This document shows positions 26,285 through 55,562 of a DNA stretch of 64,000 bases, piece by piece; position 1 is the stretch's first letter, and each line of letters begins with the position of its first letter. Origin of the DNA: Desulfatiglandales bacterium (lineage in GTDB: Bacteria; Desulfobacterota; DSM-4660; Desulfatiglandales; Desulfatiglandaceae); assembly GCA_963662465.1 (NCBI GenBank), contig OY759599.1, positions 6,976,001 to 7,040,000 on the forward strand, in the 5' to 3' direction. The position numbers were made by a program, and so were the translations under genes. The notes beneath the pieces are model-generated. The model did no database searches. It saw only the letters and a list, made by a program, of their open reading frames with translations, and had not been told where the DNA came from.

Positions 26285-26390
26285 CTTAAAAGCCCCTTTT
26301 TAGCCCCGAAAAAAACTGTTTAAGGACCAAAATCAGTCCAATTTGAAAGCTTTTCAATAATATATCAGTAGGTTGTTGCGGTCCGACCCC
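26285..26390 (+). repeat. Site B (hairpin + 66 nt + GGTCCGACCCC); copies end at 26390, 27150, 29955, 35079, 43104, 44300, 44576, 53489, 55409
   Basis: CTTAAAA..TTTTT..AAAAA..TTTTAAG stem with fixed spacing to the terminal motif. Confidence 0.85.
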
Positions 26391-26457
26391 AAGAGGCCCA
26401 CATATCAATCAAAAAGAGCAGTATGTAACTGACGTTCCTCTTTTCACCTTGCTCTTG

Positions 26458-27022
26458 ATGCCCCGCGCCAACCGACATTTTATCCCCGGCTATATTTGGC
26501 ATATCACCCATCGATGCCATAAGAAAGAGTTTCTTCTAAAATTTGACAAGGACAAAAGTCGCTGGTTATGGTGGCTATTTGAGGCGAAGAAGCGCTATGG
26601 AACGTGTATCTTGGATTACATGGTTACGCGATCTCAATAGGGTCCGAGCTGGAGTGGTGAGCCACCCATTGGAGTGGGGGCGTTTTAGCGGTTACAACGA
26701 AATTCAGAACCCTAAAGAGAGATACTCGCTCATTGATCACGCACAATTGGTGACTCTTCTCGGCAAGGAGGGCATAGATGACCTCATTGGTTCGCACGCC
26801 ACTTGGGTGGATGAAGCCGTGAATCAGGGAAACAAGCCACGTGAGGTCAAGTGGACGGAAAGCATCGCGGTTGGAAGCAAAGAGTTCGTGGAAAAGATCA
26901 AAGAAAAGCTAGGGGCCTTATTTCTGAGTCGTAAGGTGGAAGGGGAAGAGGCGTTATGAACTCCACGATCCACAACGCCCCTACAGGCTTACAGAGAATT
27001 CCTTTCCATGGCGGGATCTTTA
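26458..27022 (+). pseudogene. RAYT type B transposase, internally deleted
   Basis: Near-identical to 42215-42976 but lacks the segment with the HUH motif (NHIH). Confidence 0.9.
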
Positions 27023-27162
27023 GCGAAAACTTTCAGAGCTCTTTCTTAAAACCCGTTTTTTAGGGTCAAAAGGGGGGGGGTAAGGGTCTAAAACAGGCCT
27101 CTTTTTGTGGTTATCGTAGTTATTACAAGTTGTTGCTGAGGACCGACCCCAAGAGAAGGAAA

Positions 27163-27343
27163 AAGAATGGGATAAATCAAATTGTCACATTCAACATAAA
27201 GGATTTCCAGAAATATCCCTGGCTGACCGTTGTGGATCCGCGTGGCAGACGCAGTTCATTTCGAACTTCCGCGATATGCCCTCTGCCTTCAGACTCCCAC
27301 AGTCGTCGAGAATAGTGGAATAGTGGCAACGTCCCCCATTACA
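27163..27343 (+). pseudogene. Duplicated 3' end of the PIN gene at 38722, with its site A
   Basis: Matches ~39082-39261; begins just after a site B. Confidence 0.85.
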
Positions 27344-27637
27344 CAAAGAGCGCTGCTTGTGGAGCGCGGGAGAGGGCAGGCTGGTGAAATGGCGGGTGCC
27401 TCGGCTGGATGGTAAAACGGTTTAAAATAAATGGGTTACTTCAATTTGGAGCGTGTAACCCAAGGGACGGAGCTGTATCAGCGCATCGATATTTTCAAAG
27501 GAAGAAGGGGAGTCAGGGGAGTAACCTTACACATTAGACGCTCAAGCCCTTAATTATGTGACGAGAAACTAAATAATTAAAGAGCGTTCCCCTGCCCACG
27601 TCCCCCCATTCACCTTTAGAAAAATGGGAGGTAAGTA

Positions 27638-27859
27638 ATGGAATCGGTTTTAATTGAGAAAGAAGCCATGAAACTGCCGCTAGTTGAAAGAGCTTTGCTT
27701 GTTGATCGTCTTTTGCAGACGTTGGATGCTGAAAAGGATTTATCAATAAAGGCTTGGACAGAAGTGACAGAGAAACGATTGGAGAAATTCCGTGCAGGAG
27801 AAATGGAAGCGTATGATGGTCAAGCCGTTATCGAATCTCTTAGGAAAGAATTACGATGA
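27638..27859 (+). CDS. Addiction module antitoxin component
   Basis: LPLVERALLVDRLLQTL...AW..V...R pattern. Confidence 0.85.
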   Translation: MESVLIEKEAMKLPLVERALLVDRLLQTLDAEKDLSIKAWTEVTEKRLEKFRAGEMEAYDGQAVIESLRKELR

Positions 27860-28155
27860 CCAAATTTCGTATTCTTTCAATAGCTGCCCGTGATTTGGCA
27901 AATGCAATTGAGTATTATGAGACCAAGAGTGTGGGATTGGGCGGTGACTTTCTTGATGAATACGAAAGGACCATTTCAAGGATTTGCAGGTTTCCAGAGG
28001 CTTGGGCGCTTGTCAGCCCAAACCAGCGAAGATGTCTCATGCGTCGTTTTCCTTATGCTGTATTTTATTCCAGGATGGGTGAAGAAATCATTGTAACAGG
28101 TGTCGCCGATCTTCGTATGGATCCTGAAAAGATTCGAAAAGTGCTCCTGAGATAG
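27856..28155 (+). CDS. RelE/ParE family toxin
   Basis: DL..AIEYYE....GLG..F, RR....RFPY. Confidence 0.9.
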   Translation: MTKFRILSIAARDLANAIEYYETKSVGLGGDFLDEYERTISRICRFPEAWALVSPNQRRCLMRRFPYAVFYSRMGEEIIVTGVADLRMDPEKIRKVLLR

Positions 28156-28212
28156 GGGATTCGTTATGCCTCGTTTGTCAAGTTGGCGCTGAATGGCATT
28201 GTGGCCATTGAA

Positions 28213-28320
28213 CGCCTTATAGCACGCGCTGCCGATTTTGAGGGGAAGACCATCAGTCATTTTATAATGACCAGTGCCTTGGAGCGTGCGGAAGAAACCG
28301 TTCAGAGACATCAGATGAAA
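28213..28320 (+). pseudogene. DUF1778 antitoxin fragment
   Basis: LIARAADFEGKTISHFIMTSALERAEE. Confidence 0.65.
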
Positions 28321-28419
28321 ATTCTGCACGATATGCGTATATTATTTTCTTCCAGTTCCCTAACGACAACGCCAAAGGCTTTTATGAGCAATTCGGGTTT
28401 ATCCGCTTGTGAGGTAGAG

Positions 28420-28644
28420 ATGAAATTTAGAGCGGTCATAAAGAAATCAGAGGGCTGGTGGATTGGCTGGCTGGTCGATTTGCCAGGTGTAAATGCTCAG
28501 GAAAAGACACAAAAGGAACTGCTTGACTCTTTAAGAATCGGCGCTGAAGATATGCTTTCGATGGAAGTCCCTTTTGAGCCCGAAGCGCAAATGACGACCG
28601 TTATGGTCAAAGACCCGGCATGGGCGGAAAACCAGACTGCCTAA
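28420..28644 (+). CDS. HicB family antitoxin (orphan)
   Basis: WWIGWLVDLPGVNAQE.T..EL; GAGG RBS. Confidence 0.85.
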   Translation: MKFRAVIKKSEGWWIGWLVDLPGVNAQEKTQKELLDSLRIGAEDMLSMEVPFEPEAQMTTVMVKDPAWAENQTA

Positions 28645-28744
28645 AATTGCAACAGCTATCGTCCCAACCTGTAGCCCATGGCCCATCGCCTAATGCCTTT
28701 TCATTCTTCGTTTCCTTCGTTACCTTCTGTAAATAGCCCTTAAA

Positions 28745-28786
28745 AAAAATCCTGTAAAATCCTGTAAATCCTGTCTAAAAAAAAAT
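28745..28786 (+). repeat. Motif D (AAATCCTGT)n-CTAAAA; also ~35977, 37302, 39511, 45878, 46313, 46431, 54260, 58823, 60568, 62143, 62892
   Basis: Direct reading; two copies flank the GxxExxY gene; inverted partners at ~39405 and ~58777. Confidence 0.9.
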
Positions 28787-28802
28787 AACCGGAGACCCTT
28801 TA

Positions 28803-29140
28803 ATGCAACAACACCAACCCAATACAACCATTCAAAAAGCCCACCCTCCCGACACATCCACCTCTCCCAGGGGAGAGGCTTTCCCCTTGCCGCGGCCCGA
28901 GGACTATAACCAGGAATTCAAGAGACTCAAGAAACTGGTGAATGAACAGCGCCTCAAGGGTCGGGAAATCGTCGTTGTCATGGGTGTGGGGTTTGTAGGC
29001 GCTGTTATGGCGGATGGGTGGTAGTGGATGTTCAGTGCGATTACCACAAGGAGAGTCTGGGGAATGTTCGTCAGGGACATGCCGACATAGAGGCGCTGGA
29101 AGAGAGTCTCAAGATTATCGGGGAGAAGATTGAACCGCAT
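28803..29140 (+). pseudogene. UDP-glucose/GDP-mannose dehydrogenase family N-terminal fragments
   Basis: VVVMGVGFVGAVMA Rossmann motif, then VVVDVQCDY after a deletion; ends at site A. Confidence 0.8.
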
Positions 29141-29182
29141 CTACCAACGTCCCCCCCATTCCATATAAGTATTGGAGGAATT

Positions 29183-29416
29183 ATGGAAGCTTTTGAGTTT
29201 GAAACTGTTCATGAAAATGGAATGATCACAATACCCGATGAAATTAGACATAACTTAACGAAGAAACTTAAGATAATTATTCTGACCCAAGAGGAAAAAG
29301 AAACTGCTTTAAGTAAACTGTTGCTTGATGCTCCTACATGGAATGAATCTTATATAACGGAGTTTTATAAAGAAATTCGAGAAGGATATGCAGATTGGAA
29401 GATAGACGAATTCTAG
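29183..29416 (+). CDS. Putative antitoxin
   Basis: MEAFEFETVHENGMITIP; GGAGG RBS; overlaps a PIN gene. Confidence 0.75.
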   Translation: MEAFEFETVHENGMITIPDEIRHNLTKKLKIIILTQEEKETALSKLLLDAPTWNESYITEFYKEIREGYADWKIDEF

Positions 29417-29682
29417 TTGACACTTCTGTTGTTATTGATCACTTCAGAAAGAAAAATAACCAAAAGTCATTACTTTATGAACTGTCAAAAGATAACAAAT
29501 TGTTTTTGTCTGCGATAAGCAAATTTGAGTTTTTGGTAGGTACAAAACCTTCCCAAATTAGTCAAACAGAAAAACTAATTGAAGGGTTTTTTATTTTATC
29601 TTTCAATTCTAATGTTGCTGCTGTTGCAAGTGATATTGCCAAAAAATTAAAAACAAAAAATAAAATTATCGAATTTAGAGAT
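29395..29682 (+). pseudogene. VapC PIN toxin, 3'-truncated, fused to a HicA-like fragment and a RAYT-B 3' end
   Basis: ILVDTSVVIDHFR...IEFRD, then unrelated sequence. Confidence 0.8.
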
Positions 29683-29983
29683 ATGCTTAAGAATTTATCA
29701 AGCCGGGATGTCGCATGGGTGTTGAGTCAACTTGGCATTACCTTTAAGAGGCATGGGAAAGAAGACGTTTTTGATGGGTTGTACTGGCAGACTTACAGAG
29801 AATTCCTTTCCATGGCGGGATCTTTCGCGAAAACTTTCAGCCGCTCTTTCTTAAAACCCGCTTTTTAGGGTCAAAAAGGGGGTTTTAAGGATCTAAAACA
29901 GGCCTCTTTTTGTGGTTATCGTAGTTATTACAAGTTGTTGCTGAGGTCCGACCCCAAGAAAAAAACAAAGGCGAGGTGAACTT

Positions 29984-30202
29984 ATGATTGATATGTCTGT
30001 TGTAAAGACGCTCTCTATAGAAGAAAAGCTGCGGGTCATGGAAGCCATATGGCAGGATCTAACTGAAGAAGAACATAATGTTCAATCTCCTGCATGGCAT
30101 CTGGAGGCATTGAAAGAGACTGAGCAGAGACGCAAAGAAGGAAAAGAGGCGGTTCTTGATTGGGGAGATGCAAAGAGAGAACTGAGGAAACGCTTCGAAT
30201 GA
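29984..30202 (+). CDS. Addiction module antitoxin component
   Basis: EKLRVMEAIWQDL...SPAWH...L. Confidence 0.88.
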   Translation: MIDMSVVKTLSIEEKLRVMEAIWQDLTEEEHNVQSPAWHLEALKETEQRRKEGKEAVLDWGDAKRELRKRFE

Positions 30203-30740: not shown

Positions 30741-31107
30741 ATGCCCCGCGCCAACCGACATTTTATCCCCGGCTATATTTGGCATATCACCCATCGATGC
30801 CATAAGAAAGAGTTTCTTCTAAAATTTGACAAGGACAAAAGTCGCTGGTTATGGTGGCTATTTGAGGCGAAGAAGCGCTATGGAACGTGTATCTTGGATT
30901 ACATGGTTACGCGATCTCAATAGGGTCCGAGCTGGGGGCCTTATTTCTGAGTCGTAAGGTGGAAGGAGGAGAAGGCCGATATGAACTCCACGATCCGCAA
31001 CGCCCCTACAGGCTTACAGAGAACACCTTTCTATGGCGGGATCTTTAGCGAAAACTTTCAGTAGCTCTTTCTTAAAGCCCTCTTTTTGGGGTCAAAAAGG
31101 GAGTTTT
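30741..31107 (+). pseudogene. RAYT type B, doubly deleted, with partial site B
   Basis: Same first deletion junction as the 26458 copy, plus a second deletion at AGCTGG. Confidence 0.9.
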
Positions 31108-31136
31108 AACTTACATTAGGATGAAGGAGGTTGCAG

Positions 31137-31415: not shown

Positions 31416-31712
31416 TTGCCGGATACCAATGTCTGGATTCGCTTCTTAAATCCTGGAGAGAACCATGTCAAAAATCACTTTCTTTCAGCTGATCCAGCAA
31501 CAATTTGGCTTTGTTCGGTTGTAAAAGCCGAATTGTTCTTCGGTGCCCTGAAAAGTGCTCGAATCAAAGAAAATCTTCGGCTTTTGGATGAATTGTTTGC
31601 AAATTTCGATTCTGTTTTTTTTGACGACGATGCTGCTCGAAAATACGGCGAGATCCGTTCGGATCTTGCTCGGAAGGGTACTCCAATTGGTCCGAACGAT
31701 TTGATGATTGCG
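31416..31712 (+). pseudogene. VapC PIN toxin truncated by a transposase remnant
   Basis: DTNVWI, AELFFGA, GTPIGPNDLMIAA, then foreign sequence. Confidence 0.85.
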
Positions 31713-32436
31713 GCTATTGATGGTGGTTTCAGTGCGAATGTAATACCCGGTTTTGTTGTACTGCTTGATGGCGTTACCTCGAAACCAGTGTTTGATGCAC
31801 GCATTATTGTCATACAGCCGCCGGAATGTCTTGGATGTTGATCGGCGATGAGGCCGACGATTAAAAATCTGTGAAATCGTATCGGGCAATCCGAGACGGT
31901 GGAACTTATCCAAGAGTCGTTCAAAGAGGCTGGTACAAAAACGCGCTGATCGAAACACAATATTAGAAGAAACTTCGACCTGGCTTGAATACCAGTCGTG
32001 ATAAAGGAATTTGGATCGGGTTGACATTTCCTTTGTCGAATTTGAAGAAAATATTCATCCAGTAGTTGATCCTGTTAAGTACAGCTCTGCCAGTGAGAGA
32101 CGCAGCGGCTTTTTGAAAGGCCTCTGGATTTTCAACGTCAACAAATGCGTTTTCGCTGAGCCTGTATTTGATGCCTTGTTTGTCGAGCTGGAGTTGAATG
32201 GCATTGTGGCCGTTGAAATAGAATTCTGCACGAATTTGAATATGACCATTGAGTTGGTCGGTTAGAATCCTCATTACACCGTTTGACAACCCTTTGAATC
32301 CGAGAGCCCTGAGGAGCCTGACAATGCCTGCTGGAGAAAAGAGGGAGAGAATGTAGCCTCGAATAATAACCCGATCGAAGCAGAAATATTTGAACTTGAT
32401 ATTTTTTGAGAATTGATTCAAAAATGAGTTCTTCAT
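31713..32436 (-). mobile_element. Degraded putative transposase of a family I cannot name
   Basis: FDRVIIRGY, YFNGH, KQYNK..RTETTIN across frameshifted ORFs; short related pieces at ~28172-28212 and 21333-21351. Confidence 0.55.
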
Positions 32437-32742
32437 GGGTGTTCCTCCGGTAAGTGAGTGTTGGCTAAACAATCCATACCGGATCGCCCATGAAATTCCA
32501 AATCAAAGAAGGGGATTTTAGGCAGGGGGTAAGAGACTTCAGGATGGTCAGATGGGGTCAAGCGCTTCATCAACTTTAATATCCGGGATTTGCCCCGGCC
32601 GAAAATATTTAACCATCATGTCATTAGCCCCCTGCCTACAGCCCTTTTCGGAACTTTAGTTTGGTAAACTATCACGGTAATCGGAAAATCGAAAGAAACG
32701 CATGAATGCATGGGCGTCCCCCTGCCCCCGGAGCGAGCAAAA

Positions 32743-34598: not shown

Positions 34599-34674
34599 TT
34601 CGACATTCCCTGTTCAACATTCGACATTAAATCAACCTGTTAGATTAAATACAGCCATTGTCTAAAAAATGTTG

Positions 34675-35079
34675 CTTTTTTGTATTGCACCCTAAGAGGA
34701 AGGGTCGAAAAGGCGCCTACTGGGAAGATCGCTATCATGCGACGGCGATAGAAACAAACAGACATTTGTCTCAGTGTCTTGTTTACATTGACCTCAATAT
34801 GGTTCGTGCAGGAGTCGTAGATCATCCGCCGGACCAAAACCAAGTATTGCAGTAGGCAGTGAATCCTTTGTCGCCGCTACGAAAGAAGCCTTTGGAAACA
34901 AAGGGGAGGGGCGGGAAATTATTGGGGGTGATGGGAGCTATGAACTCCGAGAGACAGCAGCGGCTTACAAGGGCGTTTTTGGGGATGAAAATGCTGCTCT
35001 AAGGGTTCAAAATGAGTATTTCTGGAAAGATTCTCATTGAAAATCAATAAGATGGTGCTTAAATTCTTGGTCCGACCCC
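34675..35079 (+). pseudogene. Divergent RAYT type B fragments with site B
   Basis: RKGAYWEDRYHATA, YIDLNMVRAGVV. Confidence 0.85.
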
Positions 35080-35423
35080 AAAGCCCGCCCAGCAGGGCGA
35101 GCATGCCGGATAAACGTAACGATAAGGTGTAGAGTTCATAAAAGGTGAGAAACTCACTGAAAACTGCAAAAAGTCCGCAACGGACTTGATGCTGAATTGC
35201 GCAAAAAATTTTGGACATAGGGTAACTACCTGTTATTACAGGGTTTGCAGTTTTTTGAAGTTTTTTCTTGACAGGAGCATTATAGGATGTCCCCCATTAC
35301 GCATGTAATCCAAGGGGCGGAGCTGTATCAAAAGAAGCTATGGCAATGTGAAACAAACCCCATTAGACACACTGAGGTTCGACCCCAAGAGCATTACATT
35401 CCCATGCATCGTAGGAGGTAAAA

Positions 35424-37341: not shown

Positions 37342-38424
37342 ATGCCTCGCCAACCAAGACTTGACGCTCCCGGCCTTCTTCAACACGTAATGGCGCGGGG
37401 AATAGAACGGCGAAAGATTTTCTTCGACGACAAAGATCGGGAGGCTTTCCTGGAAAGGTTCGCCGGCATCCTCGAAGAAACACAAACCCAGTGCTACGCC
37501 TGGGCCTTGATTCCGAATCATTTTCATCTCCTCTTACGAACAGGTCCTACTCCGCTCAGCAAGGTGATGCGCCGTCTTATGACTGGGTACGCCGTCACCT
37601 TCAACAAAAGACATAAGCGCGCAGGCCATCTCTTTCAGAACCGATATAAATCCGTTGTGTGCGAAGAAGACGCCTATCTTCTGGAACTCATTCGTTACAT
37701 CCATTTGAATCCATTAAGAGCCGGTTTGGTAAAGGATCTTCAAGAACTGGACAAATACCCCTGGGCCGGCCACAGCGCCATCCTTGGCAACCGCAAAAAT
37801 CCGCTTGTTCCACCCGAGGAACCCAACGAACCCAATAAACTCAAAGAACCCAACGAGCCGATGAAGTCTCTTGCTGAGAAGACCATCGAAGACGTCCTCC
37901 TGCATTTCAGTGAAACCGCAAAAGTCGCTCGCCGAAAATACCACGAATTTGTCGAAAAAGGCATCGATCAAGGCAGACGCTCCGAATTCCAAGGGGGCGG
38001 GCTTGTTCGAAGCGCCGGCGGGAAGAAAGCAGGGCTCCTGGGTAGATCGAAAGAAGAAAGAGAGAAGGGGGATACGAGGGTATTGGGGAGCGGCGATTTT
38101 GTGACTGAGGCGTTGAGGCAAGCGGGTGAAGAATGGGAGAAGAGTTACAGGGAGAAAATGCCATTAGAAGAACTGATGAAAACGGTCGCGACCCACTTCG
38201 AAGTAGAGGAAAGTGATTTGAAGTCTTCCAGTAAGAAAAAGCAAGTGGTTGAGGCAAAATCCGCATTCGGGTATCTTGCAATTAAGAAACTGGGGTATTC
38301 AGGACGGGAAGTTGGGAGTTTTTTGAATATGAGAAGTTACAGTGCAATCAGAAGGGCTCAGGAAGGGCAAAAAGTGGTTGACAACCGAGGAGATATGTGT
38401 AAAGTATTGAAAATCATGGAATAG
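37342..38424 (+). CDS. RAYT type A: Y1 HUH transposase with a C-terminal DnaA-C-like HTH, intact
   Basis: HVMARG, PNHFHLL (HUH), GHLFQNRY, RYIHLNP (catalytic Tyr); stop codon runs into site A. Confidence 0.92.
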   Translation: MPRQPRLDAPGLLQHVMARGIERRKIFFDDKDREAFLERFAGILEETQTQCYAWALIPNHFHLLLRTGPTPLSKVMRRLMTGYAVTFNKRHKRAGHLFQNRYKSVVCEEDAYLLELIRYIHLNPLRAGLVKDLQELDKYPWAGHSAILGNRKNPLVPPEEPNEPNKLKEPNEPMKSLAEKTIEDVLLHFSETAKVARRKYHEFVEKGIDQGRRSEFQGGGLVRSAGGKKAGLLGRSKEEREKGDTRVLGSGDFVTEALRQAGEEWEKSYREKMPLEELMKTVATHFEVEESDLKSSSKKKQVVEAKSAFGYLAIKKLGYSGREVGSFLNMRSYSAIRRAQEGQKVVDNRGDMCKVLKIME

Positions 38425-38744: not shown

Positions 38745-39234
38745 TTCCAACATCTTTATCTATGCTGCTGATAAAGAATCACGATTTTATGCCGAGTCCG
38801 TTGGAATCCTCAAAGATGGTCTTCAAACAGGCCTGGCTACATGCGATCTGTGCTTTCTTGAATTCTATCAGGTCATCACGGACGGGCGAAAAACACCCAA
38901 TCTTCTACCACCTCAAGACGCCCTGACATATATTAAAAAACTGTGGAATACCCCCGAAATAGACGTTTTTGAGGTCGATATCCCTACCACCTTCTTGGAG
39001 GAAAAAAACCAGGAAGAACTTGTACGATACAACGTAATAAAATACGACATCTACGATTATCTTATTGCTTTGTGCCTTAAAATGAATGGGATAAACCAAA
39101 TTGTCACATTCAACGTAAAGGATTTCCAGAAATATCCCTGGCTGACTGTAGTGGACCCGCGTCGCAGGCCCAGTTCATTTCAAACTTCCGTGATATGCCC
39201 TCTGCCCCCAGATCCCCAAAGCAGTGGAAAATAG
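38722..39234 (+). CDS. PIN domain toxin
   Basis: FFDSNIFIYA, EFY.V.T, IYD.LIA, TFNVKDF. Confidence 0.88.
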   Translation: MKETMFFDSNIFIYAADKESRFYAESVGILKDGLQTGLATCDLCFLEFYQVITDGRKTPNLLPPQDALTYIKKLWNTPEIDVFEVDIPTTFLEEKNQEELVRYNVIKYDIYDYLIALCLKMNGINQIVTFNVKDFQKYPWLTVVDPRRRPSSFQTSVICPLPPDPQSSGK

Positions 39235-39263
39235 TGGAATAGTGGCAACGTCCCCCATTACTT

Positions 39264-41375: not shown

Positions 41376-41619
41376 TCCTTGGTCTGACCCCAAAACCCTT
41401 TGAACATCGCTTGTTGTGATAATTAAGAGCTCAATCAATAATTCAGGCGCCCGTCTTCATTATCTGTCAAATGCATCGTTGGGGTTACCAGCAATCATCA
41501 AAAGCCTGCTCCTGATATTGCCGCATATATGCTTTCACGATATTTACGTCCCCCATTACAATATTTAGTTACAAAGTGCCAACGTTACCCCTTACACTTA
41601 ACATTACGTGAGGTATCCA

Positions 41620-42214: not shown

Positions 42215-42976
42215 ATGCCCCGCGCCAACCGACATTTTATCCCCGGCTATATTTGGCATATCACCCATCGATGCCATAAGAAAGAGTTTCTTCTAAAATT
42301 TGACAAGGACAAAAGTCGCTGGTTATGGTGGCTATTTGAGGCGAAGAAGCGCTATGGAACGTGTATCTTGGATTACATGGTTACATCGAATCACATCCAT
42401 CTCTTGCTGTACGATATAGCTGATAGGGAATGCATTCCGAGAACAATTCAGCTGATTGCGGGCAGAACAGGGCAGGAATTCAACCAAAGAAAACGCCGTA
42501 AGGGCGCCTTTTGGGAAGACCGTTACCATGCGACTGCAGTTGAATCCCGTGAGCATTTAACCCAATGCATTTTATACATCGATCTCAATATGGTCCGAGC
42601 TGGAGTGGTGAGCCACCCATTGGAGTGGGGGCGTTTTAGCGGTTACAACGAAATTCAGAACCCTAAAGAGAGATACTCGCTCATTGATCACGCACAATTG
42701 GTGACTCTTCTCGGCAAGGAGGGCATAGATGAACTCATTGATTCGCACGCCACTTGGGTGGATGAAGCCGTGAATCAGGGAAACAAGCCACGTGAGGTCA
42801 AGTGGATGGAAAGCATCGCGGTTGGAAGCAAAGAGTTCGTGGAAAAGATCAAAGAAAAGCTGGGGGCCTTATTTCTGAGTCGTAAGGTGGAAGGGGAAGA
42901 AGGCCGGTATGAACTCCACGATCCACAACGCCCCTACAGGCTTACAGAGAATTCCTTTCCATGGCGGGATCTTTAG
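42215..42976 (+). CDS. RAYT type B Y1 HUH transposase, intact
   Basis: WHITHRCH, SNHIHLL (HUH), AFWEDRY, YIDLNMVRAG; followed by site B at 42999-43104. Confidence 0.92.
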   Translation: MPRANRHFIPGYIWHITHRCHKKEFLLKFDKDKSRWLWWLFEAKKRYGTCILDYMVTSNHIHLLLYDIADRECIPRTIQLIAGRTGQEFNQRKRRKGAFWEDRYHATAVESREHLTQCILYIDLNMVRAGVVSHPLEWGRFSGYNEIQNPKERYSLIDHAQLVTLLGKEGIDELIDSHATWVDEAVNQGNKPREVKWMESIAVGSKEFVEKIKEKLGALFLSRKVEGEEGRYELHDPQRPYRLTENSFPWRDL

Positions 42977-43361
42977 CGAAAACTTTCAGCAGCTCTTTCT
43001 TAAAACCCGCTTTTTAGGGGCAAAAAGGGGGTTTTAAGGCTCTAAAACAAGCTTCTTTTTGTGGTTATCGTAGTTATTACAAGTTGTTGCTGAGGTCCGA
43101 CCCCAAGAAAAATTTGCAAACCCCAAGAAAACAATAAAATTGAAATTCTCATCCGTCCCCCATTGCGCCAAAATTATTACAGAAAACATCCTAACCCCTG
43201 CGGCTTTCCGCTTCGGGTGCCTTTGTAATCCGGCTTGTCGAAGATGCCGAAATGCGGTGTCCCGTGAAATTGACGAAGTCAAGAGCGGAGCTCATTAGGA
43301 TAGCTTGCCCGATCCCAGCCCCCCAATGGATGCCCCCCTTATGATGTGTAAGCCCTAATGC

Positions 43362-43400
43362 TTGACAGCTTCCAAAACGATGTGTATACATGATGCATAT
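43362..43400 (+). promoter_or_regulatory. vapBC promoter with palindromic operator
   Basis: TTGACA-17-TATACA overlapping the palindrome TGTATACA. Confidence 0.6.
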
Positions 43401-43422
43401 CCATTGCGCTGCAGGAGGTGCT

Positions 43423-43653
43423 ATGAATACAGCCAAAATCTTTAGGAGCGGAAATTCTCAGGCAGTACGCTTGCCAAAAGATTTCCAGTTTAATGTATCT
43501 GAAGTCGAGATTTATCGCAGGGGGGATGAGGTGGTCCTGCGAAAGAAGCTTCAGAATCTATCCAGGGTTTTTGACCTGCTAACCGACATGTCCGATGATT
43601 TCATGGAAGACGGTCGTAATCAGCCTCCCATGCAGGAGAGAGAACCGTTTTGA
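43423..43653 (+). CDS. vapB: VapB (AbrB-type) antitoxin
   Basis: TAKIFRSGNSQAVRLPK.F. Confidence 0.92.
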   Translation: MNTAKIFRSGNSQAVRLPKDFQFNVSEVEIYRRGDEVVLRKKLQNLSRVFDLLTDMSDDFMEDGRNQPPMQEREPF

Positions 43654-44054
43654 TATATATGTTGGACACGGACATTTGCATTTACACGATCAAACGCAAA
43701 CCAAGCAGTGTTGTGAATCGACTTGAACAGCTTAAGCCTGGCGAACTTGCAATGTCTGCCATCACTTTTGCGGAGTTGGTGAATGGGGCAAAGAAAAGCA
43801 AGTATGTTGAAGCAAATATGGAGCGGCTCAATGCCTTGGGTGAATTGATCGACGTCCGACCGTTTGATAAACAGGCTGCCCTTTTTTACGGAAGTGTTCG
43901 CTCCAGCCTTGAGAAGAGAGGAGAAGTGATCGGCGGAAACGATCTCTTGATAGCGGCTCATGCACTAAGTCTCAACTGGACCCTGGTTACGAATAACGAA
44001 AAGGAATTCAGACGGGTTGAAGGATTGAGAGTTGAAAATTGGGTCGATGCATAA
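43650..44054 (+). CDS. vapC: VapC PIN toxin
   Basis: YMLDTDICIY, DLLIAAHA, LVTNNEKEF.RV.GL..ENW. Confidence 0.93.
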   Translation: MIYMLDTDICIYTIKRKPSSVVNRLEQLKPGELAMSAITFAELVNGAKKSKYVEANMERLNALGELIDVRPFDKQAALFYGSVRSSLEKRGEVIGGNDLLIAAHALSLNWTLVTNNEKEFRRVEGLRVENWVDA

Positions 44055-44580
44055 TCGTGTTGATTTACAAAAGAAAATCCAGTGAGTTAAGTCCAGAATC
44101 GTCTCTTGCTCCTTCGGTTTTGTGCGGTTTCTGTCATCTGTCAGCTGAACGCTGCGATCTGTTTTTCCGGCCCTTCGACCTCTGACTTCTGGTTCTTAAA
44201 GGCCTCTTTTTGACCCCCAAAAGGGGTGTTTAAGGTCCAGAAACCCCCTGTATTGTGGGGTAACATGCCGATATTAAGGGATTCAGCTTGGTCCGATCCC
44301 CAATCCAACCCCTGCCTTCCCCGTGAAACCTCTTTTGTATTTGTTTCACCGGAGCTTCATCGGGCTGCTAAAAAAGAGCAGTGGAATAGTAGCAGCGTTC
44401 CCCACGTCCCCCGTTGAACTAAATACCTGCCTATGGGAGGCAAACGCTCCGGATTCCTTTTCTCCGTTTTCTTAAAGGCGCCTTTTTGGGGTCAAAAAGC
44501 GTGTTTTAAGGTTGATTTTTGGGTTTTTTTTAGGCTTAACCTATTGAATAAATGGGAATGTTCCTGGTCCGACCCCGACC

Positions 44581-44783
44581 CTGCATCAGAGATTGCAAAA
44601 GCTCTTAAAAAGGCAGGCTTTCGGCTTGAGCGACAAAAGGGAAGCCACGCAAGATTTGAACATGAAGACGGACGAACAACAACTGTACCTATTCACGCGG
44701 GCCAAGATATCGGCAGAGGCCTTTTTAGAAAAATTCTTCGCGATATTGAAATGAGCTTCGACGAGTTTAGAGAATTTCTATAA
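44581..44783 (+). pseudogene. HicA toxin, 5'-truncated at site B
   Basis: AL.K.GF...RQKGSH..F.H.DGR.T.VP.H; native start is missing. Confidence 0.82.
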
Positions 44784-45918: not shown

Positions 45919-46326
45919 ATGGAACAAGAAGACCTGACCCACAAAATTATCGGCTGTGCCTACAAAGTATACAACAGACTGGGCTTCGGCTTCCTGGAAA
46001 GCATCTACCACAAAGCCATGCTGATCGAACTCGCAAGGGCCGGACTAAAAGCAGAATCTGAAAAAGGCTTAACCGTTCATTATGATGAGATGGTTATTGG
46101 AGAGTTCTCAGCCGACATATTTGTGGAAAATGAAATCATCGTAGAACTCAAAGCGGTTGAGCGGCTGATGAAAGTGCATGAAGTGCAAGTGGTGAACTAC
46201 CTAACAGCATCGAAAAATGAAATTGGCCTCCTAATAAACTTCGGCCCAACAGGCGTCAAAGTCACCCGCAAATACCGAAAATCCCTCAAACAGGCACAAA
46301 GAATCAACCCAAAAAAAATCCTGTAA
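45919..46326 (+). CDS. GxxExxY protein
   Basis: LGFGFLESIY, IIVELKA, Q.VNYL, GLLINFG; motif D on both sides. Confidence 0.92.
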   Translation: MEQEDLTHKIIGCAYKVYNRLGFGFLESIYHKAMLIELARAGLKAESEKGLTVHYDEMVIGEFSADIFVENEIIVELKAVERLMKVHEVQVVNYLTASKNEIGLLINFGPTGVKVTRKYRKSLKQAQRINPKKIL

Positions 46327-47817: not shown

Positions 47818-48444
47818 ATAAAGCAGCAAAAGCACCAACGTCCCCCATTACATTACATAATCTGTATGCTTTTCTGTGAACTTCGTGCCTTTGTGGTTTG
47901 TTTTCAGTGGTAACGCAGTTAAGTAGCAACGTCCTTCATTCCCGACCTACGTTTTTTCTACATAGACTTTTTTCTTGACAGGGGTATTATAGGATCTTAT
48001 CGTTCGCGTTTTAAAAATAAGTTCTGCAAATTTTGCCGAGGAGGCAGGCAGCACTTACTTGGCGGAACAACATCTCCACGATAAAATACGATATCAGAGG
48101 CATTGGTAGTACATCCCCGGTAAGGATACAGGCCCATAAGGGGAACAGGAACGAGCGCCTTGATAGATTGATTCGAAATTGTCGTAATTCATAGCTATTA
48201 TTATTTTTTAATGGATTCAAAAACAATACGATAACATGCTGGAATAACGATGGACATTCACAGCTGTTTGTATTATGTTAGTTTCCCAACATTACAACCA
48301 CTTGAAATAACAGGGGAACTATATGAACCGACATGTGACGCATGTGTTCATTTTCGCATCAGTGTGTTTTTTGGTTTGGTTTTGCAGTTTTTCAAAGGTG
48401 CAGGCATCACCTGTTTCAGCAGGTACTGGAAATAATATAAATGC

Positions 48445-50242
48445 CAGCAATTCCCGCTTAGATTCTAAAGGCGCTAGGACAGTACCTTTTGGCATTTCCT
48501 TTTCGTAAAGCTTTACGTTGAATGAATAGCCTGAAAAGGCTTTTTTCTCCAATTTTTAAAATAAAACAGGAATTTTTTTGGCAATTCTCAGAAAAAGCTG
48601 GACTTTCAGATCAACTTGGCCGATGATTACTGCCTATGGGAATCAGAAGCCAAAAAGGAAGAAAAGAGAGAGGCAAGATTGGAGTTCGCAAGCATCTTAA
48701 TGCAGATGCAATTTTCAAGCGTCTGCATAAAGATTTTTCTGAAGTCTCTGACTGCCGTGAGGATCCCGATATTACTATTGCGGATGCCTTGATGTCCGGG
48801 TTTGCAATGTTTTCGCTCAAGGAGCCATCGTTGCTTGCCTTTGATGAAAGAAGAAAAACCGATAGTAATCTTGGGAACATATACCATATTGGAAAGATCC
48901 CATGTGACAGTACGATGCGCACCATTCTTGATGAAGTGCTCGCAGAAGAACTTCGGAAACCGTATAGGAATATCTTCTGGGAACTGCAAAGGGGAAAGGT
49001 GCTTGAACGTATGGTATTTTTCGAAGGTTGTTATCTTCTATCTTTGGATGGAACGGGTTTCTTCTCATCGAAGAAACTTTCCTCTGATAGTTGTTTGGTA
49101 AAAGTATCGAAAAAAACCGGCGAAAAAACCTATTATCAGCAGATGTTGGGGGCAGCAATTGTCCATCCGGATTTCAAAGAGGTCATTCCGCTTGCTCCGG
49201 AATTCATAGTCAAGCAGGATGGCCAAAGCAAGAACGACTGTGAGCGTAATGCCGCGAAACGTTTCTTGCAAAAGCTAAAAGAGGAGCATCCCCATCTGCC
49301 TATCATTATAACAGAGGACGCGTTAAGTTCGAATGCACCCCACATTGAAGAAATACAAAAGCAAAATTTTCATTATATTCTGGGAGTTAAAAAAGGAGAT
49401 CACCATTTCTTGTTTAATCACGTCGAACAAGCGCGGATAAATGGTGACGTCACTGAATTCGAATTGGTCGATAAAGAGGATCCGGAAAAAATACATCGTT
49501 TCCGATTTATTAACCAGGTACCTCTCAATGCCTCTAACAAGAATATGCTGGTTAACTTTCTGGAATATTGGGAAATTACACCGAAAAAAACAAAACATTT
49601 TAGTTGGGTGACAGATTTTTTAATAGGAAAGGACAATGCATACCAGCTAATGCGAGGCGGCCGTGCGAGATGGAAGATCGAAAATGAAACCTTCAATACT
49701 CTTAAGAACCAAGGATATCATTTTGAACACAACTACGGGCTCGGCAAGAAGAATCTGAGTGTTGTTTTTGCGATGCTCATGATGCTGGCATTCTTGGTGG
49801 ATCAAACTCAACAGCTTTGTTGCCCTCTATTTATAGCCGCATGGCATAAACTCGGCTCAAAAAGGGAATTGTGGGAACGGATGAGAGCTTTGTTTAGAGA
49901 TTTTGAATTCAAATCGATGAGGATGCTCTATGAAGCCCTCTATTATGGCGTAAAGTTTCAAGCGCCAGTTATTCTATATAACAGTGGTTAAATTTGTCAT
50001 GCCCAAGTTCGCATACAAAAATGCTCTCATTAATAAAAAACTGGAGATTCCGGAAATGGATATCTCTGCCCTAACTCGTGCTTTTATGCTCTTACTCTTG
50101 TCAAAGAAGCTCAACCTGCAAGAAATCGAGGGAGGTAATAGTGGATTTAATACAATTTTTCTGAAAAGGATCTGATCTCAGGGTTTGTTTTTGAAATATG
50201 TTTTTCAAACTCTGTGAGTAAATTCTTGACCGGGAATTGCTG
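48445..50242 (+). mobile_element. Complete 1798-bp IS (inner layer)
   Basis: 12-bp IR CAGCAATTCCCG / CGGGAATTGCTG; 9-bp TSD TATAAATGC. Confidence 0.92.
48636..49991 (+). CDS. DDE transposase (ISNCY/IS4-like; family uncertain)
   Basis: SLDGTG, KNDCERNAAKR, TEDAL, GRARWKIENETFNTLK. Confidence 0.88.
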   Translation: MGIRSQKGRKERGKIGVRKHLNADAIFKRLHKDFSEVSDCREDPDITIADALMSGFAMFSLKEPSLLAFDERRKTDSNLGNIYHIGKIPCDSTMRTILDEVLAEELRKPYRNIFWELQRGKVLERMVFFEGCYLLSLDGTGFFSSKKLSSDSCLVKVSKKTGEKTYYQQMLGAAIVHPDFKEVIPLAPEFIVKQDGQSKNDCERNAAKRFLQKLKEEHPHLPIIITEDALSSNAPHIEEIQKQNFHYILGVKKGDHHFLFNHVEQARINGDVTEFELVDKEDPEKIHRFRFINQVPLNASNKNMLVNFLEYWEITPKKTKHFSWVTDFLIGKDNAYQLMRGGRARWKIENETFNTLKNQGYHFEHNYGLGKKNLSVVFAMLMMLAFLVDQTQQLCCPLFIAAWHKLGSKRELWERMRALFRDFEFKSMRMLYEALYYGVKFQAPVILYNSG

Positions 50243-50251
50243 TATAAATGC

Positions 50252-52229
50252 CGGTGCATCATCAAATCAACAAACTGGTCAATCTGAAAATCAACCCAGA
50301 CCTTTCGGTCAGAAGAATGATCGGCAGAAAATCCCAAAGCTTGAACGAAACAGGCTGGAAGAAGGTAAAAAATCAGCACCTGTAAGGAAACGAAAAAAAA
50401 AGAAAAAATCAAATAAAACGAAAACTGCCAAGAAAAAGCGTGAGGGAACTCTATCATCGGATGATGATGCCTCTCACATTGCAAACAAAAGGAAAAAGGT
50501 CAAAAAGATTAACGTTACAGCAGAAAGAGTTGACGATATACCCCTATTGATAAAGGCCATGGTGAAAATGGGTATACAAGAAGCTATAGACCAACACATC
50601 CCAGTTCAAAAGAACCAAAGAGATTTGAGCTGGGGATGGACGGCTGTTATATGGTTGGCATATATGTTATCGGAGGGAGACCATCGCAAAGTAGTCGTCC
50701 GGGAATATGTATCTGGAATGCGGCATACCTTAATCGAATTAACAGGATTGATAATCTCCGAAAATGATTTCACAGACGATCGTTTAGCGAATCTTGCCAG
50801 GTATTTAAGCGATAACGATATTTGGAGCAAAGTTGAAGAGAGAATAAGTGGCAATACGATTGAAGCATATGAGTTGCCGGAAGAAACTGTCAGGGTTGAT
50901 GCTACGACTGTATCCGGCTACCACAAAACAGTTGAAGGTGGGATATTCCAATTTGGTGTTAGTAAAGACGACCCCAATAGACCGCAAATAAAAATCATGA
51001 CGGGTTCGCTGGATCCTCTTGGGATGCCGTTAGCCACGGATGTTGTTCCAGGGCAAATGGCCGATGACAAATTGTATGCACCTATCATAAGTCGCATTCA
51101 CTCTATGCTCCAGAAACAAGGTGTCCTTTATGTGGGCGATTGCAAACTGAGTTCTCTTGAAAATCGTTTACACATTAAGGAAAAAGCGGAAGGACATTAC
51201 TTATGTCCATTGCCTAATACTGGGAAAACCCCAGAATATATGGAGAAATGGATAGATGAAGGAAATTTGAAAGACAAAAAGAACGAGTTGATAAAGTACA
51301 TCGTCCAAGACGATAAAGGTCAAGAGGAACTGAAAGCAAAAGGGTATGAGATAGAGCGTAACCAATCTGGTGAAATAAATGGAAAAGTGCTGAAATGGAA
51401 GGAACGCGTATTGATTGTAAAATCACCAGCGTATGAAAAGCAAAAAGAACTGGGATTGGAACGACGGCTTAAAAGCGCCGAGGAAAAATTATATGCTCTG
51501 ACACCACCAAGAGGCCCGGGGAAAAGGCAGATCAAAGAAAGAGAAAAATTAATAGAATCAGCAAAATCGATTTTGAAAAAACATAGGGTGAAAGATTTCC
51601 TTAAATATGAATATGTGCGGGAAGTAGAAAGTAAAACGAAATATATTGGTAAAGGTAGAGGGAGTGTCAAAAGAGAGAAAAAGGTTGAAGAAAGAATACG
51701 TTATCAAATAACAAAAGTGACACGGATTAAGGAAGCAATAGATGCGGAGAAGAAGAAGTATGGGTGGAAGGCCTATGTTACAGATGTATCAAAGGAGCGA
51801 CTTGATTTTATTGATGTAGTTAGGTCTTATCGAAAACAATACCGGGTTGAACGAATATTTAACCGACTGAAAAGTAGGCTAAACATCGCTCCATTTTACG
51901 TAAAAAGGGAAGATCAAGTTAAAGGAATAACGCATCTTCTGATGATAGGAGTCAGGGTAATTACTCTGGTTGAATTTGTTGTTCGCCGCTCATTAGCAAG
52001 AAGCGACGAAAAGCTTGTTGGATTGCACCTGGGAAATCCCAAGAAAGCTACGAACAATCCAACGTGTGAGAAGCTATTAAATGCTTTCAGCAAAATTACA
52101 TTAACGATAATTGAAACAGGAGATAGTGTGATAAGACATCTAACCCCACTTTCTCAATTGCAACGTGAAATTCTAAAACACTTTGGACTTAGCACTTCTA
52201 TATACGATAATTTAGAAGTTATGCAATAG
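50252..52229 (+). CDS. IS1634 family transposase; 5' part at 48323-48444 separated by the inner IS
   Basis: ERVDDIPLL, RVDATT, FGVSKD..RPQ, YVGDCK, YR.QY.VER.F..LK. Confidence 0.88.
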
Positions 52230-52613
52230 TAAAATATTATCGTCATAGTCCTTACAGGTTGTCACAATTGAAATACAGATTTTACGACAATTTATATGAT
52301 TGTTGGAGATATGGAACGATGGTGTTTTACGCACGATCCATTCCATTTTCTGCCCTATTGTGTTGTTCCAATATTCGACGTGTGTTGTTTTTCAGGCTTT
52401 ACTAACCCATGGATGCATGTTGCTCAAAAAGACTCCTGGTAGGCTTTCCGGAAATAACTTTTCCCCCTGCCAAGAGAGGTACCCTCTACCAGATTTCGAA
52501 ATTAATCGAAGTGCAAATTTAAAACGCGAACGATAAGTAGGATGTCCCCTATTACGGGGTTTTCCATGGTCCGACCCCAATCCACCATTGTCTGAACCGG
52601 CAAGGAGTTTGAA

Positions 52614-52880
52614 ATGCAAACCATTACATATGATAAAGCGTCGCAAAATTTGAAGAGCGTTATCCTTAGAGCCGTGAGGGATAAAGAGGAAACGGTTATT
52701 GCAAGTGATGAAGGGTCCGTTATTATCTTAGACGAAATTGAATGGTCACATATCAAGGAAACGCTTCGTCTTTTAGGCGACAAAAAATCATTGGCCGCTT
52801 TGGTAGAGTCTCATGCCATTCGTGACAGAGGTGGAAGACCTGAAGGGGTCGACCCGGAAGACGCCTTCAAAGATGTATAA
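52614..52880 (+). CDS. YefM/Phd antitoxin
   Basis: ITY..ASQNL..V.....D.E..VI, W..IKETL.LL. Confidence 0.85.
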   Translation: MQTITYDKASQNLKSVILRAVRDKEETVIASDEGSVIILDEIEWSHIKETLRLLGDKKSLAALVESHAIRDRGGRPEGVDPEDAFKDV

Positions 52881-53139
52881 GATAATCATTTCCAAAAATG
52901 CTCAGAAAGATTTATCCTGGTTTAGAAAGAACGATAGAAGCAGTTATATAAAATGCTTCGATTTGGTGAGAGAGGTCATGCAAAATCCAAGGGGTGGCAC
53001 AGGAAAACCTGAACGTCTGAAGTACTTCGAAAAAGAAGTCTATAGTCGCCGTATCAATCATAAAGACCGTATGATTTATACCATTTATGAAGGTTTAAAT
53101 GAAATAGACATCACTTCTTTCCGCGGTCATTATGAATAG
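52873..53139 (+). CDS. Txe/YoeB toxin
   Basis: GTGKPERLK....YSRRI..KDR.IY, RGHY. Confidence 0.92.
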   Translation: MYKIIISKNAQKDLSWFRKNDRSSYIKCFDLVREVMQNPRGGTGKPERLKYFEKEVYSRRINHKDRMIYTIYEGLNEIDITSFRGHYE

Positions 53140-53572
53140 CCCCAGCGCAACTCTGCTTTTTTGTGAACTTCGTGCCTTTGTGGTTTGTTTTCAGCGGTAA
53201 CGCAGTTAAGTAGCAACGTCCCCCATTTCTCTATCTTATTTATCACTCAATAACATCATTTTCAATCAATTTTGCAAGCCTCATGTGTTATATACATAAC
53301 ACATGAATTTGACCTTGTCCGGGACAATCTTTTCCTCCTATTATTTGTGAAGTTGCCCCTCTGGCCGCTTCACACATTAAACCCTGAAAACTTGGTTTTT
53401 TAGTGCGAAATGTAAGGTTTAAGGGCAAAAATGAGGCTTCTTTTGGGAAGTTCAGTAAGTAATTCGACGAGTTGCTGAGGTTCGACCCCAATACCTTCCA
53501 AAAGTCCCCCATAACATTGTCCCTTTACAATTAAATTACCTCAGTATTCACATTAAAAGCGGGGTACGCGAA

Positions 53573-53806
53573 ATGATGAGAGCGAATTTTACAATAAGGC
53601 TGAACGAACTTGACGCTGACCTCATTAAGAAGCTTAAGGGCTTTTTTCGGGATGATAATATCGTTGAGATTAATGTCTTCGATGAAGTGGATGAAACTCA
53701 GTATCTGTTTTCTACAGCGGCTAACCGGGAGTCATTGTACCGGTCCCTTGAGGAATTCAAGAAGGGGGAGTTTGTCCATAAGCAACCCCACGAGCTTTCG
53801 GCGTGA
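53573..53806 (+). CDS. Putative antitoxin (YefM C-terminal-like)
   Basis: DETQYLFST.ANRE.L..SL.E. Confidence 0.75.
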   Translation: MMRANFTIRLNELDADLIKKLKGFFRDDNIVEINVFDEVDETQYLFSTAANRESLYRSLEEFKKGEFVHKQPHELSA

Positions 53807-53970
53807 TTCACTTCACCAAAGAGGCATGGGAACATTACCTGTATTGGCAGGCGACTGATAAATCCACCCTTAAAAAGATCAATATTCTGATCCGCGACAC
53901 AGTCAGGAGTCCCTTCAGGGGGCTGGGCAAACCTGAACCTTTGAAGCGAAATCTGGCCGCGGTTCAATAA
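53803..53970 (+). pseudogene. Txe/YoeB toxin, 3'-truncated
   Basis: AWEHYLYWQ..DK...KKIN.LI....RSPF.GLGKPEPLK, then stop; SRRI end missing. Confidence 0.88.
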
Positions 53971-54137
53971 AAAAAACTAACAAAACTACCAACATCCCCC
54001 ATTAACTCACAAAAAAACACGACCTGTTCTGAGTCCTTAATCTTTTAACCTAATCCGTGAAAATCCGTGTAAATCCGTGGCAAAAAACACAAATAAACCA
54101 GTGCAATAACGCAGTTAGATAGCAACGTCCCTCATTA

Positions 54138-54215
54138 TGCATGCCTGAACCTCCGGGAGAGATAAGGCTGGTGCATGGGGAAGATCGTGCCCGGCATGCC
54201 CTTTCGGAAGCGCTC
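54138..54215 (+). pseudogene. MBL hydrolase C-terminal fragment
   Basis: MPEPPGEIRLVHGE..ARHAL, homologous to ~23197-23270; follows site A. Confidence 0.75.
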
Positions 54216-54387
54216 TATCCCCTAAAAACAACAATAAACCAACCATGACCCCTATGAAAAAAATCCTAAAAATCCTGTCTAAAAATAAAGCAACAAAAGT
54301 GCCAACGTCCCCCATTACCCTCAATTGAGGAGATATGTGGGAGATATCGAGAATAGTGGAATAGTGGCAACGTCCCCCATTACACAG

Positions 54388-54530
54388 GTTTAAGGTGTAA
54401 GGTGTAAGGTGTAAGGTGTAGGGTGTAGAGGGGGTAGGAAAAAAGGTATAAGGCATAGGGTTTAAGGTATAAGGTATAAGGCGAACCCCGCACCTTGTTC
54501 CCTACACCTTAAACCTTAAACCTTAAGCTT
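54388..54530. repeat. Inverted heptamer repeats, (AAGGTGT)n ... (ACCTTAA)n
   Basis: Direct reading. Confidence 0.85.
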
Positions 54531-54668
54531 ACAGGCTATTCAGCCCATGCAGATCAAAGCATGCTGGTCAATTGGGTAAAAGCCATGCCTGAACCTCCGG
54601 GTGAAATCCGGCTTGTGCATGGGGAGAGCAGCGCCCGCCATGCCCTTGCCCGGGCATTGGGACTGTAA
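54530..54668 (+). pseudogene. MBL hydrolase C-terminal fragment (third allele)
   Basis: TGYSAHADQSMLVNWVKAMP..PGEIRLVHGE. Confidence 0.85.
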
Positions 54669-54708
54669 CCCTGCCACCAGACAACGACAATAAGCGAAGC
54701 CCCGTGCC

Positions 54709-55242
54709 TTGTTAATTGAGAATTTAAAGGACATGCTCGTTGAGCTGCGTGGCCAAAGTGTTTTGCTCGATAGCGATGTTGCCGAAATATACGGTATTGA
54801 GACAAAACGAGTCAATGAGGCAGCAAAAAATAATCCTGATAAATTTCCGCGTGATTACATGTTTGAGGTCAGCGAAGGGGAGTTTTCGGATTTGCGGTCG
54901 AAATTTTCGACCACAAAATTTGCAAAGACAAGAGCCTTACCGAAAGCCTTCACTGAAAAAGGTTTGTACATGATTGCTACGATATTGAAAAGTAAACAGG
55001 CTACAGAAGCGACGTTTGCAATCATTGAAACTTTTTCAAAAATCAGACAGCTATCAAGAAACATTCAGGAGCTATCGATTGTTCAAGATAAAGCGGATCA
55101 GAAAGCACTCATGCAGAAAAGTGGCGAGATTATCACTGAACTCCTGGATGACGACCTGCAAACAACCGACACAGAAACATCGATAGAACTGAACTTCGCC
55201 GTTTTGAAGTTCAAGCACGCGATAAAGAAGAAGAAAAAATGA
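54709..55242 (+). CDS. ORF6N DNA-binding protein (paralog of 45257)
   Basis: LRGQ.VLLDSDVAEIYG.ET, AFTEKGLYM.ATILKS. Confidence 0.85.
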   Translation: MLIENLKDMLVELRGQSVLLDSDVAEIYGIETKRVNEAAKNNPDKFPRDYMFEVSEGEFSDLRSKFSTTKFAKTRALPKAFTEKGLYMIATILKSKQATEATFAIIETFSKIRQLSRNIQELSIVQDKADQKALMQKSGEIITELLDDDLQTTDTETSIELNFAVLKFKHAIKKKKK

Positions 55243-55562
55243 GAAATATCGAATATGGGATTGCCTGTGCACGCTCTGCACGAACATCCCCAAGTCTATA
55301 TTTTCTTAAAAGCCCCTTTTTGCCCCAAAAAGGGAGTTTTAAGGCCTAAAATGGGGCCTTTTTTTCCATCTATTGTAGTTATTACAATGGGTTGCTGAGG
55401 TCCGACCCCAAGAGCTAGCGAAAAAAGTAATTAATCCAGTCATATAAATGATTTTCCTTTATGGAAGTCAAGGGGCTGAGCTGTATCAGCGCATCGGTAT
55501 TTTCAAAGGAAGAAGGGGAGTTAGGGGAATAACCTTACAAACCTTCCAACGTTAAGTATTTA

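Follow-up and report, generated by a model that had tools for sequence, protein, structure and literature searches.

A repeated sequence, here termed site B, was surveyed together with its transposase gene RAYT-B in 64,000 nucleotides (nt) of Desulfatiglandales bacterium (assembly GCA_963662465.1, contig OY759599.1, positions 6,976,001 to 7,040,000 of the forward strand). This whole stretch is called the window, and its own numbering is used below. Site B is composed of a palindrome ending in TAAG, a spacer and a short tip motif, and it lies in a 42-kb patchwork (21–63.5 kb) where toxin-antitoxin pairs are mixed with gene fragments and with what is left of Y1 transposases. The last G of TAAG lies 66 nt before the last motif base in eight copies (26324-26390, 27084-27150, 29889-29955, 43038-43104, 44234-44300, 44510-44576, 53423-53489 and 55343-55409) and 76 nt before it in a ninth (35003-35079); all nine coordinate pairs are as claimed by the initial annotation. 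One mismatch is present in three of the nine motifs (27150, 44300 and 53489). Three further copies hold the tip motif without the palindrome (35376..35386, upstream of a hicBA pair; 41381..41391; and 52568..52578, upstream of yefM-yoeB), and one palindrome, ending at about 31109, is without a motif. All nine complete ends and the three motif-only copies have one orientation, on the + strand, as for nearly all cargo genes.

The intact RAYT-B gene (42215..42976, + strand, as for the other copies and ends and the duplicated segment placed in this paragraph) encodes a Y1/HUH protein of 253 aa with H60, H62 and Y121, has Asn at residue 5 and is without a left end. Its right end (42999..43104) holds the palindrome at 42999-43038, a box resembling the site of integration host factor (IHF) at 43077-43089 and the tip at 43094-43104, with a duplication scar just outside. 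Another RAYT-B copy, carrying an internal deletion and also without left end (26458..27020), has its right end at 27045..27150, followed by a 3′ PIN-gene fragment which is also present at 39079-39261. A 5′-truncated RAYT-B tail with its end (29788..29955; palindrome 29850-29889, box 29928-29940, tip 29945-29955) is followed by an addiction-module/ParE pair, and a deleted copy (30741..31109) terminates in a palindrome without spacer or tip. At 34658..35079 lie the fragments left of a second relative of RAYT-B, now broken, whose right end is of the coding type, its last codons overlapping the palindrome (IHF-like box 35042-35054, tip 35069-35079). The remaining ends are lone: 26285..26390 (palindrome 26285-26324, IHF-like box 26363-26375 with 0 mismatches, tip 26380-26390); 44195..44300, downstream of vapBC; 44471..44576, with an IHF-like box decayed to 5 mismatches, followed by a 5′-truncated hicA, and with its nearest relatives (78–81% identity) in another genome's array; 53384..53489, with a degenerate palindrome; and 55304..55409, downstream of an ORF6N gene. 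A segment holding vapBC and two ends (43179..44582) is duplicated, its second copy lying about 70 kb off at 99.8% identity. The ends at 27150, 29955 and 43104 are RAYT-B tails with 91–96% mutual identity and were hence counted as a single lineage.

Relatives were collected by a search with RAYT-B, in which the best 80 of 595 matching stretches gave 79 loci, all in other genomes, and a held-out set was formed of metagenome ends from the best 80 of 596 matching stretches. The palindrome and the tip region were scored by separate models trained on 109 ends; nine seemingly out-of-register ends were left out of training, and the host genome and metagenome sets were not part of it. Among right ends, 40 of 62 have an exact TAAG that terminates at a distance of 66 nt from the tip, and among left ends 33 of 60. 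By the models, offset 0 from this spacing was found in 135/159 ends of the training loci, a count which is favoured because the nine ends were dropped, in 27/33 complete ends of the host genome and in 115/132 held-out metagenome ends, of which 130 are within 1 nt, so that the geometry claimed to be conserved holds in a wider sample. Pooling of distinct ends gave 270/319 at offset 0, 39 at ±1 and 10 beyond. Since palindrome matches are rare (a model trained on other genomes scores at least 15 at 7.5e-6 of genome positions) and 27/33 host-genome ends stand at the exact offset, the spacing is not due to chance. The IHF-like box stays at −27 (negative positions run inward from the tip) in 38/40 ends having an offset of ±1. 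Among the 10 larger offsets, five are of ±9–10. The 76-nt copy of the window is longer by one helical turn: the end at 35079 has 10 extra nt between the IHF-like box and the tip, an intact element of genome G007 has 76 nt at both ends (its right end is 79% identical to that at 35079), and L011 has +9 at both ends. In viral contigs 19 pattern matches were obtained, none of which passed the end model, and they were taken as chance; no Rfam match was found in window 20000-64000.

The same end design is present 3′ of the gene in RAYT-B relatives and, inverted, about 107–167 nt 5′ of its start. A left end was found in 60/75 other-genome loci with room for it, a right end in 56/69 and both in 49/79; for the metagenome loci the left and right counts are 60/70 and 50/55. 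The two-ended elements span 928–1082 bp (49 loci), no target-site duplication of at least 3 nt was seen in any of these (0/49), and two-ended miniatures of 236–385 bp occur. The right end overlaps the last codons in most relatives. Of the family's 105 genomes, 41 contain a match to a strict end pattern, against a single match in the control. Terminal inverted repeats (TIRs) around the gene are thus a property of the family (49 loci), and the window's own lineage has the right end only. One inverted end pair (G000:C1:1057646-1060531) encloses what appears by eye to be an NAD-dependent DNA ligase gene and a BrnT-type pair, possibly a cargo-carrying two-ended element. The places at G000:C1:55098, 7086143 and 8112498 have near-identical coding-type ends with the same flank and also share array fragments with the window.

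The protein contains a Y1 core with the HUH and catalytic Tyr, NHxH, WE and YIxLN signatures of TIRYT (subclass 2.1) and a Pfam Y1_Tnp match. H60, H62, W100, Y121 and N125 are invariant in 64 proteins, and the Tyr motif of RAYT-B is YIDLNM, the Pro of Y-x-x-x-NP being replaced by Met. Its predicted structure (pLDDT 87) has as closest fold 4ER8, TnpA-REP bound to a hairpin (Z 14.8, root-mean-square deviation 2.6, 158 aligned residues). About 110 residues lie beyond the core, with no Pfam helix-turn-helix match; no fold was obtained for the C-terminal region in a search that barely covered the residues after 209. Site B is best read as the terminal inverted end, about 106 bp long and degenerate, of a family of Y1 transposons which measure about 930–950 bp and are assigned to TIRYT/subclass 2.1. 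Sequence comparison shows that the end contains a degenerate palindrome of 40 bp, A/T tracts in helical phase, a box with the IHF consensus (−27 to −15) and, as its tip, GGYCCGACCC.

This element class is already known, and the placement fits the description of TIRtrons/TIRYT (Di Nocera et al. 2013, PMC3733652), which correspond to TnpA-Y1 subclass 2.1 (Quentin et al. 2018, PMC6006769) and to RAYT Group 1 (Bertels et al. 2017, PMC5581495). Among Y1 groups, subclass 2.1 ranks second in size, being present in 14.9% of strains according to PMC6006769, where its function and mechanism were left open. As far as these texts describe them, such elements share with site B the inverted ends around a Y1/HUH gene, a GGGG-led motif, the absence of REPs, the frequency in Deltaproteobacteria and the occurrence of ends as lone, paired or clustered repeats. 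The tip reverse complement fits the published GGGGWSAS at 7/8 positions, and the variant at 41391 at 8/8. The difference is that a short motif is described there, whereas here a fixed 106-bp architecture, IHF box, phasing, residue-base rule, duplication scars and a one-ended lineage were obtained; no account of these features, the lineage aside, was found in the open-access literature searched, and published figures or supplements may show these TIRs. REPtrons have the same fold and genome-wide repeats, and IHF binds one BIME class (RIB, according to a title in the references of PMC3479197). As described there, TnpA-REP requires a hairpin with a GTAG foot, and the distance at which it cuts CT varies, whereas in site B the distance is fixed and the tip would be read by sequence; no GTAG/GTGG-footed REP hairpin was apparent, the end consensus being without a GTAG foot, and NF047646 scores 60.6 against a cut-off of 80. 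With IS200/IS605, in so far as the sources cover them, site B shares Y1 chemistry, a subterminal palindrome at a distance from the cut and the lack of target duplication. Their ends are asymmetric and lie on one strand, whereas at site B a single design recurs in inverted form and carries duplex features, and neither the Y-x-x-x-Q motif nor distinct one-strand left and right hairpins were found here.

The initial annotation had also assigned the site to RAYT-B, which is borne out by the ends flanking its relatives and by a tip which tracks a transposase residue. Tip base −8 is identical at both ends in 36/36 elements, whereas it agrees at 50% across elements and the two ends are only 54% alike. 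Among 73 GTDB elements, Lys at residue 5 goes with C in 28/28 and Asn with T in 36/36; Arg pairs with a third tip variant in 6/6 GTDB ends. The metagenome ends gave 54/55 for Lys-C and 63/63 for Asn-T, and in the window, where RAYT-B has Asn, the T tip is present at 8/9 sites. As the tip does not overlap codon 5, the rule is no coding artefact. The residue-base label changes at least 8 times on a quick tree (search unfinished). From this pattern we infer that the transposase may contact the tip base directly via residue 5. Residues near 153-154 (alignment 152-155) track the palindrome half-site type and may read the palindrome; the signal of C-terminal alignment columns with half-site type is due to coding overlap.

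The account which we regard as fairly likely is that of a TIRYT end with an IHF-bent duplex, nicking at the tip and one-ended insertion outside existing ends. IHF or a relative would bend the duplex end so that the palindrome-bound transposase reaches the tip, and bend and reach together would fix the spacing at 66 ± 1 nt or at whole helical turns. A nick near the last two tip bases would leave a 3′-OH on the end and a 5′-phosphotyrosine on the flank; the 3′-OH may then be extended by a few bases, switch template by microhomology and be rejoined at an end. The DNA added in this way, directly outside an existing end, would start at variable points and always finish with an end, and the lone co-oriented ends of the window would be one-ended products together with the decay of whole elements. 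For TnpA-REP, PMC3479197 reports a 5′-phosphotyrosine that is kept and is resolvable by any 3′-OH, and open strand transfer was proposed.

The tip is a rearrangement joint, judging from duplications at its outer side. Tandem duplications of at least 7 nt just outside the tip were found at 74/186 ends (control 5%), most of them beginning between −5 and 0 (mode −1), and at 50/126 held-out ends. Orthologous ends of genomes G090 and G091 differ by extra tandem end copies of 119–280 nt, which consist of 4–9 flank bases followed by copied inside sequence, and at one site the two genomes hold different units of 120 and 174 nt. In the window, 6/9 sites stand at recent-duplication breakpoints (0.35 expected). 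In the 1.4-kb duplication of vapBC and two ends, identity stops 6 nt past the tip at 44576, and a contig depth of 95 versus about 55 confirmed two copies of the segment. Two 40-nt duplications of the IHF-like box and tip alone were noticed in G109 (1320001-1320041 and 1324855-1324895), a possible origin of motif-only sites.

A rather unlikely alternative keeps site B as a transposon end and takes the lone copies as mere debris: whole TIRtrons would have inserted into a locus that tolerates them and then been broken up by ordinary deletions, and their ends would bring in no genes. Broken RAYT-B copies and 300-bp two-ended miniatures do exist, the G090/G091 ends are mostly static intergenic repeats lying between ordinary genes in both orientations, 75 of the 81 duplication breakpoints of the window are not at site B, and the contigs of four runs showed, among the joints listed, none at site B beyond those from known copies. 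Random decay should leave both orientations, so that the co-orientation of the 9 + 3 window sites, of 12/12 listed sites in the G109 stretch and of 8/8 in the G007 stretch counts against debris, as do the breakpoint excess described above and a lineage that is without a left end in 5/5 independent contexts (the window RAYT-B and its closest relatives) yet has a ratio of nonsynonymous to synonymous substitution (dN/dS) of 0.11–0.16. Replication-strand bias was considered as a cause of the orientation and rejected (12 leading versus 8 lagging outside the array). Several lone ends are also nearer to array ends of other genomes than to others in the host genome. One-ended growth is favoured over pure decay by this co-orientation, the missing left ends, the dN/dS and the cross-genome similarity of lone ends. 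The array cargo of G109 and G007 resembles toxin-antitoxin genes by eye; the co-oriented lone ends in such arrays, together with the conserved one-ended lineage, suggest array growth at the ends, which is unproven. Capture of genes is likewise unproven, because the cargo after the tip is often a truncated gene fragment rather than a clean cassette (27150, 44576), and close strains showed no gain of a clean gene-plus-end unit.

Whether the end is read as hairpin or as duplex was approached by a covariation script run on ungapped ends. The palindrome, centred at −85.5, does covary, as the initial annotation would expect, and is the only register to do so (Z 6.9 over 8 pairs); no register of second stems or tip-stem pairing exceeded Z 2.8, and the tip paired with the distal half in only 27/114 (top strand) or 23/114 (bottom strand) folds. 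The AA/TT period is 10.5–10.75 nt over the whole end and likewise in the non-coding spacer alone. The IHF consensus with at most 2 mismatches was found at −27 in 83/114 ends (next-best position 31/114), at −27 to −15 in 112/132 held-out ends, and in 7/9 window copies including the shifted one. The scan used WATCARNNNNTTR, a looser form of the consensus WATCAAnnnnTTR given in PMC10380432; the ends have a box of this type with an upstream A/T-rich flank, as is usual for an IHF site by sequence. The spacer is therefore diverged (48–73% identity between window lineages), as first claimed, and is not free sequence, since it holds the IHF-consensus box and the phased A/T tracts. These are features of duplex DNA and suggest a bent duplex substrate; the enzyme probably reads the geometry of the end in duplex form and nicks it at the tip.

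Reading in single-stranded form in the IS200/IS605 manner, where the transposase binds the subterminal hairpin and the fixed distance is its reach to the cleavage site, is improbable. The lone covarying register, the closest fold being TnpA-REP bound to a hairpin and the good folding of several window copies (z about −3 to −4 at 29955, 43104 and 55409) speak for it. The hairpin is weak at 26390, 27150 and 35079 (z −0.9 to +0.3); true left ends have a median fold of −4.1 kcal/mol, 8/39 are weaker than −2 and 51% beat their own mid-stem shuffles, and stem complementarity of 36–44% at variable positions is low for an obligatory hairpin. Nor would a flexible single strand of 55 nt hold the spacing to ±1 nt, give rise to a helical period or to whole-turn variants, or call for an IHF box.

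In the attC sites of integrons, the R″ and R′ boxes pair to close one hairpin. The initial annotation had likened site B to such a structure-read site, and although co-oriented, variable-sequence sites between small toxin-antitoxin genes and a GTT at −18 in 60/114 ends recall an integron array, recombination by an integron-type tyrosine recombinase is highly implausible: the boxes are absent (GTTRRRY at the GTT position in 0/114, a complementary box in 1/114), the tip is unpaired with the stem and without covariation to it, the site is inverted at both ends of a Y1 gene whose residue the tip tracks, duplex features are present, cargo is often truncated and none of the genome's 58 tyrosine-recombinase matches lies in the window. 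Integrases do exist elsewhere in the genome and could act in trans.

Several observations weigh against the IHF-bent duplex account and its parts. Characterised Y1 enzymes act on single strands. The six variable mid-stem pairs are complementary above chance, in 196/450 (null 127) and 122/336 held-out (null 89), so the palindrome may have a role as hairpin or cruciform. The larger offsets are few, and those of ±9–10 stem from about three independent events; in coding right ends, the spacer alone has a period of 9.75. The IHF-like box is poor in 2/9 window copies, and the IHF-like genes of the host, which by best hit are two of the alpha and two of the beta kind, do not reach curated cut-offs. 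For the residue rule, well-supported tree branches force only 2 label changes, and the exceptions are one Lys-T, one His-C and one Gln-C end and a Lys fragment with T tip in the host genome. For the joint, site B holds only 6/81 window duplication breakpoints, three of which come from one RAYT-B tail, and an empty-versus-filled insertion site of a whole element was not found.

An analogy to the IHF-bent duplex is offered by the Type I-F CRISPR leader, where, according to bioRxiv 10.1101/2023.05.26.542337, inverted repeats and IHF sites fold a 100–150 bp duplex and the enzyme is sent to one junction, read largely by shape; enzyme and sequence there are unrelated to RAYT-B.

Other elements of the same array were recorded as well. 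RAYT-A (37342..38424, + strand; Y1 and Bac_DnaA_C) is another transposase, and the end motif that belongs to it, site A, is a tip motif downstream of the gene, which in window 21000-64000 occurs 20 times on + and once on − and stands at 6 duplication breakpoints (0.8 expected). About 13 copies of a repeat built of ATCCTG occupy window 28745-62935, and some bound GxxExxY genes (45919-46326, fragment 60344-60580), possibly a third element system. Window 47996-52539 holds a 1.8-kb multi-copy DDE insertion sequence (48445-50242) nested in another multi-copy DDE element, whose uninterrupted form is present in contigs of three runs. The 64 nt at 41476-41539 occur once in the assembly, but contigs of three runs, among them the best holder at full depth, lack them, which is a strain variant or an assembly error. 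Minus-strand fragments of a multi-copy element without Pfam match are inserted in a PIN gene at 31708-32667.

As a tentative extension, which is doubtful at present, the one-ended TIRYT lineage under purifying selection might be an array-building enzyme, for which the IHF-folded ends would serve as recipient and donor and nick-primed copying would add gene-plus-end units outside the ends, an integron-like accumulation by an HUH enzyme with a one-residue, one-base switch. For subclass 2.1, the data define a testable substrate by giving the length of the end and its spacing, the residue-base rule, and the probable host factor and nick position. If true, duplex reading of an IHF-folded end would set these elements apart from characterised Y1 enzymes, which follow a single-strand hairpin rule, and if it is also true that the ends drive array growth, this would explain some of the integrase-free toxin-antitoxin arrays in surface-polysaccharide loci.

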